Shown: positions 5,617 through 22,507 of the stretch, one piece after another
How the letters are laid out: every line of letters begins with the position of its first letter
Numbering within the stretch: the first letter of the stretch is position 1
Assembly: GCF_056712565.1 (NCBI RefSeq)
Contig: NZ_CM160072.1
Direction: 5' to 3' (one strand)
Length of the DNA stretch: 64,000 bases
Made by a program: the position numbers and the translations under genes
Notes under the pieces: model-generated
The model's input: the letters and a program-made list of their open reading frames with translations, nothing else
Databases searched by the model: none
Told to the model about the DNA's origin: nothing

Positions 5617-6636
5617 TCAAAAATCGGCTTTCAACACCACGCGGTAACGCGCCTTACCGTCGCGCACATGCTGGATGGCGTCGTTAATTTTCGACATCGG
5701 GAACAGTTCGGTAGTCGGCGCAACCTTGCTGCGGGCGGCAAAGCGCATCAGCTTACGCAACTCATAAGGTGTACCGGTAGCAGAGCCAGAGACACTGCGA
5801 TCGCCCGCAATCAGCGTAAAGGCCGGAACCGGCAACGGCGTGAGAACCGCACCGACGGTGTGGAAATTACCGCCATACGTCAGCGCCTCAAAATAAGGCT
5901 GCCAGTCGAGGCTGACGTTCACAGTATTGATAATGAGATCAAACTGCCCCGCCAGAGTTTTCAGTGCCTGCGGATCGCGGCTATTCACCACTTTATCGGC
6001 ACCCATCGCCAGTACTTCCTGCTCTTTCGCCGGATTTGAACTAAAGGCTGTCACCTCGCATCCCATTGCGTGCAGAAGTTTTATAGCGATATGCCCCAGC
6101 CCGCCAATACCAATTACCCCAACGCGGCTGGTAGCAGTGATATGGTGCATCAACAGTGGTTTAAAGACCGTGATACCGCCGCACAACAGCGGCCCGGCGG
6201 ACTCGATATCAATATTTTCTGGCAGTGGAATCACCCATTGCCAGTCCGCACGCAACTTCTCGGCAAAGCCACCGCGATTCATAATCGTCGGCACCGCACC
6301 TTGCTCGCAGTTGATCTGATTACCGCTAATACAGGCGTCGCAGTGACCACAGCTACGCGCCGTCCAGCCAATCCCGACACGCTGACCGACCTGCAAACCT
6401 TTATCCTGCGCGGCGCTCCCGAGTGCCACCACGCGCCCAATCACCTCATGCCCGGCAACCAGCGGATATTGTGAAAATCCCCATTCGTTATCGATCATCG
6501 ACAGATCGGAATGGCAGATCCCGCAGTAATCCACCTGCACTTCAACATCTTGTGGCCTCAGCTCACCGGGATCGTACTCATAAACTTCCAGTTCGCCGCC
6601 CGCTTCTTTTGCGGCATAGCTTTTTATCATCGACAT
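5617..6636 (-). CDS. ahr: NADPH-dependent aldehyde reductase Ahr (YjgB), zinc-ADH family
   Basis: ORF 5617..6678; start set at [14 protein letters not shown] (339 aa); zinc-ADH motif GICHSDL. Confidence 0.8.
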
Positions 6637-6774
6637 TTTTTGGTCCTTCTCTGGTGTTGTTTGGGAAGTGTAGAGCATGGCAGGGCGGGGTGCCTGGAGT
6701 GTGACAAAGGTTACACATCGCTGTATGCAATGCTGAAAATTTCAGCACTTAGCGAGGTGCGAGCAAGCTGGCGC

Positions 6775-6802
6775 TTGCATGGTGGCGTGCGACAGGTATA
6801 AT
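6775..6802 (+). promoter_or_regulatory. Sigma70-type promoter of leuX (-35 TTGCAT, 16-bp spacer, -10 TATAAT)
   Basis: TTGCAT at 6775-6780 and TATAAT at 6797-6802, about 30 bp upstream of the tRNA 5' end. Confidence 0.5.
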
Positions 6803-6831
6803 CCACAACGTTTTCCGCATACCTCTTCAGT

Positions 6832-6916
6832 GCCGAAGTGGCGAAATCGGTAGACGCAGTTGATTCAAAATCAACCGTAGAAATACGTGCCGGTTCGAGT
6901 CCGGCCTTCGGCACCA
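6832..6916 (+). tRNA. leuX: tRNA-Leu (anticodon CAA), 85 nt with encoded CCA end
   Basis: GCCGAAGTGGCGAAATCGGTAGACGCAGTTGATTCAAAATCAACC...GGTTCGAGTCCGGCCTTCGGCACCA: class II tRNA with long variable arm, anticodon loop TTCAAAA. Confidence 0.95.
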
Positions 6917-6930
6917 AAAGTATGTAAATA

Positions 6931-6953
6931 GACCTCAACTGAGGTCTTTTTTT
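6931..6953 (+). terminator. Rho-independent terminator of leuX
   Basis: Hairpin GACCTC-AACT-GAGGTC followed by a run of 7 T. Confidence 0.75.
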
Positions 6954-7176
6954 ATGCCTGAAATCCAGTGTTTATCTATCTTTCCCGCTATATTAACTCT
7001 CTCAAGGTCAACCGATATCAACGTACATCTACCAACATATGTTGGTACAGATGATGGTATTTCCGGTTCGATAATGCTTGTACCAACAGGGAGGGAATAC
7101 GATGGCATTAACAGATATCAAAGTCAGAGCAGCCAAGCCAACGGATAAGCAATATTAGCTGACTGATGGTGGCGGT

Positions 7177-8367
7177 ATGCATCTGCTTGTCCATCCAAAT
7201 GGTTCTAAGTACTGGCGTTTGCAGTACCGTTATGAGGGAAAGCAAAAAATGCTGGCACTTGGGGTTTATCCTGAAATCACACTAGCGGATGCCAGAGTAC
7301 GTCGTGACGAGACGCGTAAGCTGCTTGCGAATGGCGTCGATCCGGGAGACAAAAAGAAAAATGATAAGGTTGAACAGAGTAAAGCACGAACCTTTAAAGA
7401 AGTCGCGATTGAGTGGCATGGCACCAATAAAAAGTGGTCTGAAGATCACGCCCATCGTGTGCTAAAAAGTCTTGAAGATAATCTTTTTGCAGCGCTTGGT
7501 GAACGTAATATCGCTGAGTTAAAAACTCGAGATTTATTAGCACCTATTAAGGCCGTAGAAATGTCTGGACGTCTTGAAGTGGCCGCTCGTCTTCAGCAGC
7601 GCACTACAGCCATCATGCGCTATGCAGTGCAAAGTGGGTTAATTGATTATAACCCGGCACAAGAGATGGCTGGGGCGGTTGCTTCCTGTAATCGACAACA
7701 TCGTCCCGCGCTTGAATTAAAGCGCATCCCTGAGTTGCTTACAAAAATAGATAGCTATACTGGTAGGCCGCTAACCCGATGGGCGATAGAACTCACTTTG
7801 CTGATCTTTATTCGGTCCAGTGAGCTGCGTTTTGCTCGTTGGTCAGAGATCGATTTCGAAGCGTCTATATGGACTATCCCACCGGAGCGGGAGCCTATTC
7901 CTGGAGTGAAACATTCCCATAGAGGCTCAAAAATGCGTACAACGCATCTAGTGCCTCTTTCAACGCAAGCTCTTGCAATTTTAAAGCAGATAAAACAGTT
8001 TTATGGGGCCCATGACTTGATATTTATTGGTGATCACGATTCGCACAAACCCATGAGTGAGAATACGGTAAATAGTGCGTTACGGGTCATGGGGTATGAT
8101 ACAAAAGTAGAGGTTTGTGGTCATGGCTTTCGAACAATGGCCTGTAGTTCATTGGTCGAATCAGGTCTGTGGTCTCGTGATGCTGTTGAACGCCAGATGA
8201 GCCACATGGCGCGAAATTCAGTGAGGGCCGCGTATATCCATAAAGCAGAGCATCTGGAAGAACGGCGATTGATGCTACAGTGGTGGGCCGATTTTCTGGA
8301 TGTAAACAGAGAAAGGTTTATCAGTCCATTTGAATATGCAAAGATTAATAATCCATTAAAACAGTAA
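7177..8367 (+). CDS. intB: P4-type tyrosine integrase; intact ORF begins at internal ATG because the native start (ATG 7102) is followed by an in-frame TAG at 7156-7158
   Basis: 396-aa ORF with tyrosine-recombinase C-terminal region (HGFRTMACSSL...RAAYIHKAE); upstream in-frame MALTDIKVRAAKPTDKQY-stop-LTDGGG is the typical P4-integrase N-terminus; directly downstream of tRNA. Confidence 0.85.
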   Translation: MHLLVHPNGSKYWRLQYRYEGKQKMLALGVYPEITLADARVRRDETRKLLANGVDPGDKKKNDKVEQSKARTFKEVAIEWHGTNKKWSEDHAHRVLKSLEDNLFAALGERNIAELKTRDLLAPIKAVEMSGRLEVAARLQQRTTAIMRYAVQSGLIDYNPAQEMAGAVASCNRQHRPALELKRIPELLTKIDSYTGRPLTRWAIELTLLIFIRSSELRFARWSEIDFEASIWTIPPEREPIPGVKHSHRGSKMRTTHLVPLSTQALAILKQIKQFYGAHDLIFIGDHDSHKPMSENTVNSALRVMGYDTKVEVCGHGFRTMACSSLVESGLWSRDAVERQMSHMARNSVRAAYIHKAEHLEERRLMLQWWADFLDVNRERFISPFEYAKINNPLKQ

Positions 8368-8371
8368 TCAT

Positions 8372-8389
8372 CCCGGGCAAATGCCCGGG
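8372..8389 (+). terminator. Hairpin CCCGGGCA-AA-TGCCCGGG immediately after intB stop (possible terminator, weak T tract)
   Basis: 8-bp perfect stem 5 nt after the intB stop codon. Confidence 0.35.
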
Positions 8390-8539
8390 AATTATTCTAG
8401 GATTATTTTCTTTGTTAAAAAAGACAAACGGTATTAACTGATGTATTTACTATTTACCGCTCCCTGCAGGGGGGATTATCAGAATCCGCGGTTATTCATT
8501 ATTTATATACATTCAATAAAAAAGTAACTGGATTTGCCC

Positions 8540-9445
8540 CTATATTTCCAGACACCTGTTATCACTTAACCCATTACTGGCTTGCTGCCGTAGATATTCC
8601 CGTGGCGAGCGATAACCCAGTGCACTATGCGGATGCCATTCGTTATAATGCTCGAACGCCTCTGCAAGGTTCTTTGCTGCCGTTAACCCGTCTGGTTTGG
8701 GCATGACACTGATGTAGTCACGCTTTATCGTTTTCACGAAGCTCTCTGCTATGCCGTTACTCTCCGGACTCCGCACCGCCGTGCTCTTCGGTTCAAGCCC
8801 CAACATCCGGGCAAACTGCCGTGTTTCATTAGCCCGGTAGCATGAACCATTATCCGTCAGCCACTCTACTGGAGACGCCGGAAGCTCGTTGCCGAAGCGG
8901 CGTTCCACCGCTCCCAGCATGACGTCCTGTACTGTTTCACTGTTGAAGCCGCCCGTAGTGACCGCCCAGTGCAGTGCCTCACGGTCACAGCAGTCCAGCG
9001 CGAACGTGACTCGCAGTTTTTCTCCGTTATCACAGCGGAACTCGAACCCGTCAGAGCACCATCGCTGATTACTTTCTTTCACAGCCACTCTGCCTGTATG
9101 TGCCCGTTTCGATGGCGGTACAGCAGGTTTTCGCTCAAGCAACAGCGCATTCTGGCGCATGATCCGGTAAACACGTTTGGCATTGATCGCAGGCATACCA
9201 TCAAGTTCTGCCTGTCTGCGAAGCAGCGCCCATACCCGACGATAACCATACGTGGGCAGCTCTCCGATAACATGGTGTATACGGAGAAGCACATCCGTAT
9301 CATCAGTGTGACGACTGCGGCGGCCATCCATCCAGTCATCGGTTCGTCTGAGAATGACGTGCAACTGCGCACGCGACACCCGGAGACAACGGCTGACTAA
9401 GCTTACTCCCCATCCCCGGGCAATAAGGGCGCGTGCGCTATCCAC
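8540..9445 (-). CDS. insD: IS2 transposase OrfB (InsD)
   Basis: 301-aa ORF, IS3-family DDE transposase (…[25 protein letters not shown]…). Confidence 0.9.
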
Positions 9446-9768
9446 TTTTTTGCCCGTCCATATTCAACGGCTTCTTTGAGGAGTTCATTTTCCATCGTTT
9501 TCTTGCCGAGCAGGCGCTGGAGTTCTTTAATCTGCTTCATGGCGGCAGCAAGTTCAGAGGCAGGAACAACCTGTTCTCCGGCGGCGACAGCAGTAAGACT
9601 TCCTTCCTGGTATTGCTTACGCCAGAGAAATAACTGGCTGGCTGCTACACCATGTTGCCGGGCAACGAGGGAGACCGTCATCCCTGGTTCAAAGCTCTGC
9701 TGAACAATTGCGATCTTTTCCTGTGTGGTACGCCGTCTGCGTTTCTCCGGTCCTAAGACATCAATCAT
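9403..9768 (-). CDS. insC: IS2 OrfA (InsC), HTH protein
   Basis: ORF 9403..9813; start set at [24 protein letters not shown] (121 aa); overlaps insD in the usual frameshift arrangement. Confidence 0.85.
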
Positions 9769-10103
9769 CTGCTCTCCAATGACTAGTCTAAAAACTAGTA
9801 TTAAGACTATCACTTAAATAAGTGATATTGGTTGTCTGGAGATTCAGGGGGCCAGTCTAGTAACCTCATAAAAAATCCTGTACTCACAGGGTGATGCGGG
9901 ATAACTGACGTAAGGAGTGCTGCAGGGATTTGATGGTCCCTTGTGCTGATATGAATACGGATATTTTATACAGAATACTTTTCAGTACAAGCGACTGTAT
10001 TACAGTCTGCCATATATGATTACCTGTGATCAGGAAGAATAAGTGGCTGAGGTTTCAAACTGTCTGCCGGTATATTCCTCTCTCCCTTAAAAACCATAAC
10101 AGG

Positions 10104-17622: not shown

Positions 17623-19137
<1,515 letters not shown>

Positions 19138-19199
19138 TCTGCATTCCCTCATATTGCGGCCGAGATAATAATTGCCGCCCCCAGGACGGCATGTTGCTA

Positions 19200-21203
19200 T
19201 TAACGAACCAGGTGCAGGAAGTGCAGGTGTTTTTCGTACTGGTCCAGTATGTCATTAATCAGCTGTTCCTGGTTCCAGCCCATCACATCATAATTTTGAC
19301 CGCCTTCTTTGAGATAAACCTCAGCGCGATAATATCGATGTTGTTCACTCTGCTGCTCATCATTATCCATTGCGGCGAGCGCGAAGGTCGGTGAGATATA
19401 CCCGCGAAGCCTCACTTCATATATAAAATTCAGCTCGTTGCCCAAATCGACTTCAAGACGAATACGATCGTCGACTGCATCACTAATGTGGCTTATCGTC
19501 CCCTGCTTGTTCAGTTCCTCCTGAACCAGCGTCATGGCGGGCTGGATAACGTCGTCCATAAAACGTTTCACAAGAGATCGCTTCGGCAGATACGCGATAT
19601 TGCGTAACCTTCTCTGCCAAGGAATTGGGTTACGTGCAGCCGTAGGAGCAATTGTCGCCATGCTCAGGCTTTCACGCTTGGTCAAATCCCGGCGCAAAGC
19701 TTTTAAAAGTCCGTATATGGATATTAGTAAGATCACTGAGAAGGGCAATGCACTCGCTATTGTCACCGTTTGCAGCGCACTTAGCCCTCCGGCAAGGAGA
19801 AGCGCAATTGCAACAATGCCCATGAGCGAGGCCCAGAATATTCGCTGCCAGACGGGTGTGTTTGCCACTCCACCTGATGCCAGAGTATCCACAACCATTG
19901 CCCCCGAATCAGCAGACGTTACAAAGAAGACGATGACCATCGCCATTGCAATGAATGACAGCACAGAAGAGAACGGGAAATGCTCCAGGAAATTAAACAG
20001 GGCCAGCGACACATCCTGCTGAACAGTATTGGCGAGGTCTGTGGCCCCCTGGTTCATAATGAGATAGATCGCGCTGTTACCAAACACCGTCATCCACATT
20101 AGCGTAAAACCCGCGGGAACAAACAGCACGCCGGTGACAAACTCGCGAATGGTTCGCCCGCGGGAGACCCGTGCGATGAACATCCCCACAAACGGCGACC
20201 ATGAAAGCCACCATCCCCAGTACAGTAATGTCCAGCCCCCCAGCCAGTTGCTCGACTTGGGCTCATACGCGTAAAGGTTGAACGTTTTACTCACCAGTTC
20301 CGAAAGATAACCGCCCGTATTTTCCACAAATGACTTCAGCAGAAGCACGGTTGGTCCCAGACACAGGACCAGCGCCAGGAGCAACAAAGCCAGACCCAGA
20401 TTGAGTTCAGACAGGATACGTATTCCCTTATCCAGACCGGACACCACTGAAATCGTCGCTAACCCCGTGATGACCACGATCAGAATTACCTGCACCGTTT
20501 CATTGATGGGCACCCCGAAAAGATGGTTCAAACCGGCATTCACCTGCAAAACACCGTAACCCAGTGATGTCGCAACGCCAAAGACCGTGCCTATAACAGC
20601 GAAAATATCAACCGCATGTCCTACAGGTCCGTATATGCGATCGCCAATAATGGGATAGAGTGCGGAGCGCAGAGTTAAAGGCAGACCGTGACGGTAACTG
20701 AAGAACGCCAGAATCAGCGCCACAATGGCATAAATTGCCCATGCGTGCAGTCCCCAGTGGAAAAAGGTCAGACGCATTGCTTCCTTGGCTGCCGCAACGG
20801 TTTCTGGAGTGCCAACGGGTGGCGAAAGATAATGCATTACAGGTTCGGCAACGCCAAAGAACATCAGGCCGATCCCCATCCCTGCCGAAAAAAGCATCGC
20901 AAACCAGGAGTGGTAGCTGAAATCAGGCTGCGCATGGTCCGGGCCCAGCTTGATATCACCGTAGCGTGAGAGTCCAAGGAACGTGACACTCAGTAAAATC
21001 AGGGCCACAGCAAGGATGTAGAACCAGCTGGCATTCGTGAAGATTTGTTGCTGAAGTAGTTTAAAATTTTTGTCGGCGACATCCGGGAATACGGCGGCAA
21101 AGGCGACAAGAAGGAAAATTAGCAAAGCAGATGTAAAGAATACCGCTTTGTTAATCTGACTTGTAGACTTCTTTGGGATTGTATCATTTTCACTCATAAT
21201 CAT
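19200..21203 (-). CDS. BCCT-family transporter, BetT-like (choline/glycine betaine type) with long C-terminal cytoplasmic domain
   Basis: 667 aa; BCCT signatures (…WTLLYWGWWLSWSPFVGMFIARVSRGRTIREF…); C-terminal tail …INDILDQYEKHLHFLHL resembles BetT. Confidence 0.8.
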   Translation of the reverse strand: MIMSENDTIPKKSTSQINKAVFFTSALLIFLLVAFAAVFPDVADKNFKLLQQQIFTNASWFYILAVALILLSVTFLGLSRYGDIKLGPDHAQPDFSYHSWFAMLFSAGMGIGLMFFGVAEPVMHYLSPPVGTPETVAAAKEAMRLTFFHWGLHAWAIYAIVALILAFFSYRHGLPLTLRSALYPIIGDRIYGPVGHAVDIFAVIGTVFGVATSLGYGVLQVNAGLNHLFGVPINETVQVILIVVITGLATISVVSGLDKGIRILSELNLGLALLLLALVLCLGPTVLLLKSFVENTGGYLSELVSKTFNLYAYEPKSSNWLGGWTLLYWGWWLSWSPFVGMFIARVSRGRTIREFVTGVLFVPAGFTLMWMTVFGNSAIYLIMNQGATDLANTVQQDVSLALFNFLEHFPFSSVLSFIAMAMVIVFFVTSADSGAMVVDTLASGGVANTPVWQRIFWASLMGIVAIALLLAGGLSALQTVTIASALPFSVILLISIYGLLKALRRDLTKRESLSMATIAPTAARNPIPWQRRLRNIAYLPKRSLVKRFMDDVIQPAMTLVQEELNKQGTISHISDAVDDRIRLEVDLGNELNFIYEVRLRGYISPTFALAAMDNDEQQSEQHRYYRAEVYLKEGGQNYDVMGWNQEQLINDILDQYEKHLHFLHLVR

Positions 21204-21350
21204 TTATTCCATTAATTAAATTCGCACTGGATAGAAGGTACTACCTCTCACAAAGTAGCAAAGTTCAACTGGCTATGCGGCGTTAATCGGAATGCATGGT
21301 GGAATGTTGAGGTGTACTGGCAATAGCGGACACTACCATTTGTTCTTTTT

Positions 21351-22169
21351 TTAAGCAGCCATCTGATGATATTTTTCCCTGAAGGCTGCCGGGGAGATAT
21401 TCCCCAGACGAGAGTGACGACGCTGACGATTGTAGAAAATCTCAATGTATTCCCGTATTACTGAGATGGCTTCATCCCGGTTATTAAAACGATAGTGGCT
21501 CAGGCTCTCATTTTTCAGCGTTCCCCAGAAGCTTTCCATCGGAGCGTTGTCGTAACAGTTACCTTTACGCGACATTGATGTTTTCAGACCAAACTGCTCC
21601 TGTATGACCCGGTAATCGTATGCGCAGTACTGTGAACCTCGATCAGAGTGGTGGATTAGCCCGGCAGGTGGGCGCTGGCTCCTGAGCGCCATAAACAGGG
21701 CTTTACCTGTCAGCTCTTTTGTCATGCGCTCTCCCATGGCGTAGCCGACAATTTCGCACGTATAAACATCTTTGATGCCAGCGAGGTACAACCATCCCTC
21801 CTGTGTGGCAACATACGTCAGGTCCGCCACCCAGACCTGATTTGGTGCTGTAGGAGCGAACGTCTGGTTCAGCAGATTTGGCGCAACTGGCAGATTGTGG
21901 TTCGAGTTCGTAGTCGCTCTGAACTTGCGTTTCTGCTTACAGCGTAGCCTTAGCTCCTTACGAAGACGTGCCAGTCGGTCACGACCAACGATGATGCCAT
22001 TCTCTGCCAGCTCCGTCTGGAGCCGCCGGGTTCCATATGTTTCGCGAGTGCGGATATGTGCCACCTTAATCTCCAGTTTTAGCCGCTCATCACTTTGTTT
22101 TCTGTCTGAGGGTTCATGCTGTACCCAGTTGTAATAACCGCTCCTGGATACACCAAATACCTGACACAT
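21351..22169 (-). CDS. IS3-family (IS600-like) transposase OrfB
   Basis: 272 aa with DDE motifs (…NQVWVADLTYV…HHSDRGSQYCA…). Confidence 0.8.
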   Translation of the reverse strand: MCQVFGVSRSGYYNWVQHEPSDRKQSDERLKLEIKVAHIRTRETYGTRRLQTELAENGIIVGRDRLARLRKELRLRCKQKRKFRATTNSNHNLPVAPNLLNQTFAPTAPNQVWVADLTYVATQEGWLYLAGIKDVYTCEIVGYAMGERMTKELTGKALFMALRSQRPPAGLIHHSDRGSQYCAYDYRVIQEQFGLKTSMSRKGNCYDNAPMESFWGTLKNESLSHYRFNNRDEAISVIREYIEIFYNRQRRHSRLGNISPAAFREKYHQMAA

Positions 22170-22204
22170 CGCTTCAATGGGAAATTGTTGTCGCCATTGT
22201 TCGA

Positions 22205-22507
22205 TTAACGCGTATTTTTCAGCGACTCCTGTGCAAAATCTACAGTTGCTTTTTTTAATATATCTCGCTCAAGGCGAGCTTCATTTAACGCCTTACGCAG
22301 TTGTAGAATTTCAGATTCCAGTTCAGCCACCGTGCGGGAACCAGGAGTACCGAGCCCTTTTCTGGCGGCGGTAACCCATTGTCCTAAAGTGCCTTCAGGA
22401 AGAGATAATCGGGAAGCGCCTTCACTGATCGAAAGTTGATTTTCAAGAACCGTTCTGACAGCTTCGGCTTTGAACTTTTTAGAGTAACGTTGGGTTTTTC
22501 TGCTCAT
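22205..22507 (-). CDS. IS3-family (IS600-like) OrfA, HTH protein
   Basis: 100 aa, MSRKTQRYSKKFKAEAVRTVLENQLSISEGASRLSLPEGTLGQWV…, leucine-zipper C-terminus. Confidence 0.8.
   Translation of the reverse strand: MSRKTQRYSKKFKAEAVRTVLENQLSISEGASRLSLPEGTLGQWVTAARKGLGTPGSRTVAELESEILQLRKALNEARLERDILKKATVDFAQESLKNTR

Follow-up and report, generated by a model that had tools for sequence, protein, structure and literature searches.

The stretch of DNA analysed here (the window, 64 kb of one strand) covers the ahr-leuX-intB junction of E. coli. This region matches strain 104 from chicken with 100% identity, and the genome of that strain is also the best match to the window (99.86% over 49.9 kb). A tRNA gene, leuX, is followed by the integrase gene intB, and intB is followed by an IS2 copy. 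The features are:

6832..6916, + strand: leuX, tRNA-Leu with wild-type anticodon CAA, the island integration target (ARAGORN; Rfam tRNA, 59.4 bits)
6897..6916, + strand: attL core, formed by the final 20 bp of leuX and the same as the annotated P4 attP core GAGTCCGGCCTTCGGCACCA
6930..6954, + strand: Rho-independent terminator of leuX, hairpin at 6930-6947 and T-run (terminator scan)
7030..7088, no strand: three TACCAACA motifs: a perfect palindrome of 18 bp (7030-7047) and one more copy (7079-7088; motif search)
7089..7095, + strand: Shine-Dalgarno sequence GGGAGGG with a 6-nt spacer to ATG 7102 (anti-SD duplex energy)
7102..8367, + strand: whole intB, very probably a pseudogene, ancestrally a 421-codon P4-type tyrosine integrase (Pfam, intact alleles, K-12 feature)
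7156..7158, + strand: amber codon TAG, K19* (AAG to TAG; alleles and homologues)
7159..7161, + strand: CTG at which RefSeq PGAP starts a 402-aa CDS for amber alleles (annotation)
7177..7179, + strand: internal Met26 codon, the first ATG past the stop, which opens the 396-codon residual ORF
7312..7314, + strand: A71T, found only in the sub-lineage of the amber allele to which the window belongs (Ala in 120/120 homologues)
8209..8211, + strand: E370A, common to all amber alleles sampled (n=8; Glu in 120/120 homologues)
8529..9859, - strand: IS2 copy downstream of the integrase (BLAST, 97.7% identity to K-12 IS2K)

An earlier note on this DNA described an integrase frame that opens at ATG 7102, stops at TAG 7156-7158, continues as LTDGGG and restarts at ATG 7177. 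Direct reading of the sequence gives exactly this arrangement. The ATG at 7102-7104 and the 17 sense codons after it together encode MALTDIKVRAAKPTDKQY, and the in-frame TAG at 7156-7158 follows. The next six codons are CTG ACT GAT GGT GGC GGT, after which ATG 7177-7179 lies in the same frame. The residual ORF in the ORF list (7177..8367) has 396 aa. As the same note had stated, an in-frame amber codon interrupts a conserved N-terminus, and the residual ORF is without the first 25 residues.

We reconstructed the 421-aa protein and found three domains with Pfam: arm-binding, central and catalytic. The arm-binding domain covers model positions 1-82 of 83 of PF13356 (Arm-DNA-bind_3; E 1.2e-27). 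The central, core-binding domain is PF22022 (E 1.1e-26), which PDB entries 2KKV and 2KJ9 also match, and the catalytic domain is PF00589 (E 1.7e-18). The protein had been called a P4-type integrase, and it aligns with P4 Int (NP_042035.1) from residue 1, with 58.5% identity over residues 1-408 (97% coverage, E 6e-160, tblastn). P4 shares the three-domain architecture, the identical att core and the presence of arm-type repeats immediately upstream of int. Unlike the allele in the window, P4 Int is intact and functional, and the P4 arm repeat is of the TTGGGGGCAT type and not of the TACCAACA type.

The amber-interrupted intB is already known and is curated as a pseudogene in K-12, a match that the earlier note had not made. 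In the record NC_000913.3, intB (b4271) is a pseudogene at 4496750-4497940, which corresponds to 7177-8367 in the window; the curated feature thus starts at the Met26 codon. The K-12 feature 'cryptic prophage PR-Y' (4496675-4497940) starts further upstream, and its start maps exactly to 7102. We regard the allele as known because of this curated annotation. In the literature on intB, KpLE2 and leuX we found no paper that discusses the intB amber codon. RefSeq PGAP treats amber alleles differently: they are annotated as a 402-aa CDS from CTG 7159 and not as a pseudogene (WP_223362169.1, WP_223293345.1). There is no Shine-Dalgarno sequence at this CTG, and we regard the start as an annotation artefact.

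The translation signals belong to the upstream ATG. The anti-SD duplex at ATG 7102 has an energy of -11.6 kcal/mol, which is equalled by only 0.06% of random 20-mers from the window. Before CTG 7159 (-3.3 kcal/mol) and before ATG 7177 (-5.4 kcal/mol) the energies are within background. Since a strong Shine-Dalgarno sequence exists only at 7102, the expression signals belong to the ancestral start. A promoter scan of 6700-7400 found no sigma-70 consensus promoter for either start. The distance from the stop codon to ATG 7177 is 19 nt, and re-initiation so close behind a stop is mechanistically possible. From these signals, re-initiation at ATG 7177 is the only way in which the residual frame could be translated, and weakly at most.

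The ancestral codon and the arm-binding domain

The amber codon replaces a lysine codon. Intact E. coli alleles have 421 codons, and their annotation starts at the upstream ATG; their DNA identity is 96.7-99.4%. All those sampled have AAG (Lys) at codon 19. The earlier note had expected a Trp codon at 7156-7158, but the codon is AAG in all intact alleles and the residue is Lys in 120/120 homologues. Comparison of the alleles indicates that the lesion is a single A-to-T transversion at 7156, which turns AAG (Lys19) into TAG.

The close homologues were obtained by searching a large protein database with the reconstructed protein (n=120, from many Enterobacterales genera). They are uniform: 118 of the 120 have 415-422 aa, every one aligns from Met1, and none deviates from Lys19. 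A stop at codon 19 is conserved in no homologue, neither among the 120 nor among the intact E. coli alleles. For the wider family we used 150 more distant cluster representatives of the arm domain, where position 19 is Lys or Arg in 133. Phage P4 Int also has Lys at the position equivalent to 19, and the printed alignment with 3JU0 likewise shows Lys where the amber codon lies. Position 26, the internal Met, is less uniform. It is Met in the close homologues, yet Leu in 86/150 and Met in 62/150 of the distant representatives, and Leu in P4 Int.

No intact homologue was found that naturally starts at the internal Met. Only 4 of the 150 representatives begin at Met26, and all of them are short fragments (90-181 aa). 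Two are, by sequence, copies of the E. coli amber allele itself. The other two genes were inspected at the DNA level: in one the ATG has changed to ATT and 1 nt is deleted, and the other contains several in-frame stops and an IS that cuts its 3' end.

The alignments indicate that the 25 codons upstream of ATG 7177 are genuine coding sequence and not a chance ORF, since they supply positions 1-23 of the Pfam model and align residue for residue with the homologues, P4 Int, 3JU0 and 3JTZ. The model of Arm-DNA-bind_3 has 83 positions, and the residual ORF starts at position 24.

To place the lesion in the fold, we used an AlphaFold model of the arm domain alone, built from a diverse alignment (mean pLDDT 92.9). 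A full-length model from 49 close homologues was left unused (mean pLDDT 53.9, with residues 1-21 below 50). The domain model contains a helix (5-9), four strands (β1 18-21, β2 26-30, β3 36-44 and β4 47-56) and a second helix (61-76). It agrees with the crystal structure of the arm-type binding domain of the HAI7 integrase (3JU0) at 0.6 Å rmsd and also fits 3JTZ and 3RMP (0.6-1.0 Å rmsd overall across structures). The PDB title of 3RMP is 'Structural basis for the recognition of attP substrates by P4-like integrases'. The arm domains of the HAI7 and HPI integrases (3JU0, 3JTZ, 3RMP) are 72% and 52% identical to ours, respectively, when aligned from residue 1. They are intact and come from active island integrases, whereas the domain in the window is interrupted in β1.

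In the domain model Lys19, and with it the amber codon, lies within β1, and Met26 is the first residue of β2. A product that starts at Met26 would be without the N-terminal helix, the conserved basic loop (K12, K16) and β1. As β1 belongs to a four-stranded sheet, the model suggests that what is left of the arm domain would probably be unable to fold. The arm-binding domain of lambda integrase is essential in directing integration and excision (PMC8138268). By analogy, the arm domain is presumably essential in related integrases carried by mobile elements. In the uropathogenic strain UPEC 536, P4-like integrases encoded by pathogenicity islands catalyse the excision of the islands (PMC3202238).

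Population frequency, linked substitutions and the island

The amber allele is widespread. Its 81-mer is found without mismatch in 922 of 5,426 complete E. coli genomes (about 17%). Of the same 5,426 genomes, 2,077-2,160 carry the integrase 5' end. Among these carriers, 922 have the exact TAG 81-mer (roughly 43%) and 867 the exact AAG 81-mer; the remaining carriers have additional SNPs, and their codon 19 state lies outside both exact counts. Genomes with the amber allele include K-12 MG1655, DH5alpha and isolates from humans, chicken and pork, for example an O102:H6 strain.

A second substitution travels with the stop. The 81-mer of E370A is exact in 917 genomes, compared to 922 for the amber 81-mer. 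From these numbers, E370A and the amber codon form one haplotype, whichever of the two arose first. E370 follows the invariant His368 by two residues and precedes the invariant Tyr378 by eight. The codon of Tyr378, the presumed nucleophile in the motif RAAY, is at 8233-8235, and the allele in the window retains both Tyr378 and His368.

The amber alleles are very similar to each other. The eight sampled show at most 2 differences per 1,266 nt, and in all eight the 396-codon downstream frame is open. This open frame carries little weight, because such a small divergence leaves too little time for further disruption. All lineage-specific residue changes (K19*, E370A and A71T) hit invariant positions. 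The pattern suggests relaxed constraint; as the numbers are small, we treat it as supportive only. An estimate of dN/dS within the amber clade was dropped as uninformative at this divergence (at most 2 differences per 1,266 nt).

The closest known system is intB of K-12 itself (b4271, KpLE2, leuX). The order of the locus is the same (ahr-leuX-intB-IS2-yjgX...fec), and so are the TAG codon and E370A. The two intB sequences differ at 2 of 1,266 nt, which are A71T and a synonymous change at 8193, both in the window. The islands are collinear (intB, IS2, yjgX, nanXY, fecIRABCDE, yjhU and further genes), with BLAST blocks 99.8-99.96% identical to NC_000913 4495500-4540000, and the collinearity is broken by IS-associated inserts. 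Compared to KpLE2, the island in the window has two extra inserts of about 4.4 kb and 21 kb, the larger of which contains Ag43 and a YeeU/CbtA module. The IS2 copy behind intB is inverted and displaced by 79 bp relative to IS2K of K-12, and its InsC and InsD ORFs are in the ORF list. The island is riddled with IS elements. Together with a dead integrase, this IS load fits an immobilised, domesticated island.

Only one end of the island is marked by an attachment core. The last 20 bp of leuX form the attL core, and no second copy of the leuX 3' end (attR, with up to 3 mismatches) is present in the 64-kb window, which ends inside the island, such that the search there covers the island from its leuX end up to the end of the window. 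The 44.5-kb KpLE2 locus of K-12 also contains no attR at the same threshold.

The TACCAACA motif occurs only three times in the 64-kb window, and all three copies are within 59 bp. It is kept in an allele whose coding sequence is just 75% identical. By analogy with P4 the cluster is a candidate set of arm-type or operator sites for the integrase. The position just upstream of int is analogous to that of the P4 attP arm repeats, while the sequences are unrelated.

Integrases of other leuX islands show what an undamaged copy looks like. WP_001218934.1, WP_001218930.1 and WP_047088530.1 (421 aa) share the position at leuX, the Shine-Dalgarno sequence and the upstream TACCAACA repeats with the window. 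They differ from its allele by AAG (Lys) at codon 19 and by Glu at 370. The integrase of PAI II536 in UPEC 536 is also island-encoded, P4-like and leuX-targeting, and it carries out both site-specific steps, integration and excision (PMC3202238). This integrase is functional: excision occurs at 1e-5 to 1e-6 and leuX of K-12 serves as an integration site, whereas the allele in the window is nonsense-inactivated.

Explanations for the amber allele

We consider it very probable that intB is the nonsense-inactivated integrase pseudogene of a leuX-inserted, KpLE2-type island, produced by ordinary gene decay. An ancestral 421-codon P4-type tyrosine integrase would have gained one A-to-T change at 7156. 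Ribosomes would still load at the Shine-Dalgarno sequence before ATG 7102, make an 18-residue peptide and terminate. Any product of re-initiation at ATG 7177 would be without the N-terminal helix, the basic loop and β1, and would carry E370A near the active-site tyrosine. The island, with fec, nanXY, sgc, Ag43 and other genes, would then be without its own integrase and without a detectable attR. It would be fixed in the chromosome and either inherited vertically or moved by homologous recombination. A junction in ahr at about 6037/6038 is a candidate trace of such a transfer. Two observations are typical of a pseudogene: a premature stop in a conserved domain, set against all functional homologues (K19* in β1), and a residual ORF without a translation signal of its own (anti-SD energies). 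We infer that there is no protein, no recombination activity and an immobile island.

The stop itself is real. An error of sequencing or assembly has a practically negligible probability and is refuted by the identical 81-mer, which recurs in 922 complete genomes assembled independently, K-12 MG1655 among them. It is also extremely unlikely that ATG 7177 is the natural start of a subfamily, with the upstream frame being a leader or an ORF by chance. Simple ORF callers and the curated feature of K-12 do begin there, and so do four database proteins, but these four are fragments or independently damaged genes. Moreover, the alignments with 120 close homologues, P4 Int, 3JU0 and 3JTZ all begin at Met1, most relatives (86/150) have Leu at position 26, and the Shine-Dalgarno sequence serves ATG 7102. 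The homologue alignments, the residues at position 26 and the placement of the Shine-Dalgarno sequence thus refute a natural start at ATG 7177.

Could the stop be read through? The amber codon might act as a conditional switch, with the full-length integrase made through a supP-type leuX, another suppressor or natural readthrough. The earlier note had named supP as an allele of the adjacent leuX and had raised a functional link as speculation. The allele is named correctly, as supP is a leuX mutant with the anticodon changed from CAA to CUA (PMC7969014). The link to the amber codon is unsupported. In the window, leuX has the wild-type anticodon CAA (ARAGORN), is the only tRNA in 64 kb and lies 186 nt upstream of the integrase gene. 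It is a separate transcription unit, terminated ahead of that gene by a terminator that is efficient in vivo (PMC2811032). Furthermore, relatives do not share the stop: Lys occupies this position in all intact alleles and in the 120 homologues. Suppression would put Leu or Gln in place of the invariant Lys, and E370A would stay. Rfam, run on both strands of 6500-8600, found nothing besides the tRNA, and hence no readthrough-promoting RNA element. Some suppression is conceivable in the laboratory: DH5alpha and some K-12 laboratory derivatives with the amber allele presumably carry supE44 (glnV44), going by their published genotypes. In such carriers some insertion of Gln at codon 19 would be expected, which does not apply to the strain of the window. 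We therefore judge a conditional switch very unlikely; the wild-type anticodon of leuX largely refutes it.

A function for the truncated protein is the remaining alternative, and we think it improbable. According to this idea IntB, translated by re-initiation at ATG 7177, retains a function, and selection explains the frequency of the allele. The protein could be an arm-independent recombinase, a dominant-negative form or competitor of leuX-targeting integrases, or a DNA-binding regulator. The gap of 19 nt and the very strong upstream Shine-Dalgarno sequence would deliver terminating ribosomes close to ATG 7177, but there is no Shine-Dalgarno sequence at 7177 itself. Pfam still gives full scores to the central and catalytic domains, while the truncation removes β1 from the four-stranded sheet and, judged by the model, probably leaves the remaining arm domain unfolded. 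E370A and A71T, at positions invariant in 120/120 homologues, look like relaxed constraint. All 8 sampled amber alleles keep the 396-codon frame open, yet a divergence of at most 2 differences is too low for an open frame to signal selection. Finally, the allele is common: 922 genomes carry it, and their sources include humans, chicken, pork and the laboratory. Such a frequency is accounted for if the allele hitchhikes with an island that is itself useful (fec), and no role of IntB is needed. There is a small chance, in our view, that a selected, low-level truncated integrase occupies the leuX core and modulates the acquisition or excision of P4 or PAI II536-like elements. If true, this would be part of the reason for the wide spread of the haplotype, which about 17% of complete E. 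coli genomes carry.

Consequences for leuX islands

The allele matters in three ways. For the island, the locus would illustrate a textbook route to fixation, in which the integrase is lost to a point mutation and the attachment repeat is lost too. For annotation, the 402-aa PGAP calls in hundreds of genomes would inflate the number of 'intact' island integrases in predictions of mobility. For the species, the amber/E370A haplotype is a convenient marker of one widespread lineage of leuX islands.

A mosaic haplotype at leuX

Comparison with the K-12 reference (NC_000913) reveals 23 differing sites at this end of the window, and all of them fall within one short segment of ahr.

5713-6037, minus strand: divergent segment inside ahr, with the junction at about 6037/6038

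Divergence within these 325 bp is approximately 7%. From 6038 to 7311 the two sequences do not differ at a single site, and only two further differences occur as far as 8528. Because the 23 differences are confined to 5713-6037 and the sequences are nearly identical from 6038 to 8528, K-12-like DNA lies directly beside a divergent distal part of ahr. Hence, the haplotype carrying leuX and the amber allele of intB (the P4-type integrase gene with TAG at codon 19) is K-12-like DNA fused to this divergent part. The junction is mosaic, and this arrangement suggests homologous recombination inside ahr.

Island content compared with KpLE2 of K-12

Three features 3' of intB distinguish the island from KpLE2 of K-12:

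8529-9859: IS2 copy, inverted and displaced by 79 bp relative to IS2K of K-12, 97.7% identical to it
17884-22237: insert absent from K-12 KpLE2
32804-54124: larger insert of about 21 kb, absent from K-12 KpLE2, at the IS1F position

Several strains with the amber allele have no IS2 at the spot downstream of intB. Given these IS2-free strains and the inverted, displaced and only 97.7% identical copy in the window, different lineages acquired IS2 independently, at almost the same position. According to the annotation of strain 104 (the chicken isolate that matches the window best), the 21 kb insert contains a CP4-like module, with Ag43, antirestriction, YeeU/CbtA and YfjI-family genes among its contents.

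Repeats and spacer upstream of intB

The motif TACCAACA occurs three times in the 64 kb window, and all three copies lie within 59 bp (7030-7088) just 5' of the integrase Shine-Dalgarno sequence.

7030-7047: perfect 18-bp palindrome TACCAACAT/ATGTTGGTA, comprising two of the three copies
7079-7088: TGTACCAACA, the third copy

An allele with only 75% identity in the coding sequence still has the repeats. They occupy a position analogous to that of the arm repeats of phage P4 attP, but their sequence is different. The repeats are candidates for arm-type or operator sites. Between the Shine-Dalgarno sequence and the ATG, the spacer (7096-7101) carries a 1-nt indel polymorphism and is 6 or 7 nt long: ATACG-ATG is the form in the window and in the K-12-type and PRO_A alleles, and the remaining intact alleles have ATACGCATG.

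Annotation and decay of the integrase

In many genomes with the amber allele, NCBI PGAP calls an intact integrase of 402 aa (WP_223362169.1, WP_223293345.1) that starts at CTG 7159, immediately 3' of the TAG. The curated K-12 record lists intB as a pseudogene. The PGAP calls are a systematic over-call of "intact" integrases.

In ST131 genomes (L008, strain 2019_APHA; database matches H17-H19) the same integrase gene is cut off about 460 nt in and adjoins a phosphoethanolamine-transferase fragment; codon 19 is still AAG. This lesion is a deletion-type inactivation, distinct from the amber. Related integrases on two metagenome/Logan contigs have been damaged independently, in the N-terminal stretch that the amber also hits (L016:511-690, L017:480-640). 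One has lost its start (ATG to ATT) and carries a 1-nt deletion; the other contains multiple in-frame stops, and its 3' end is cut by an IS. For both, gene callers likewise choose the internal Met. Decay of the 5' end is recurrent in these integrases.
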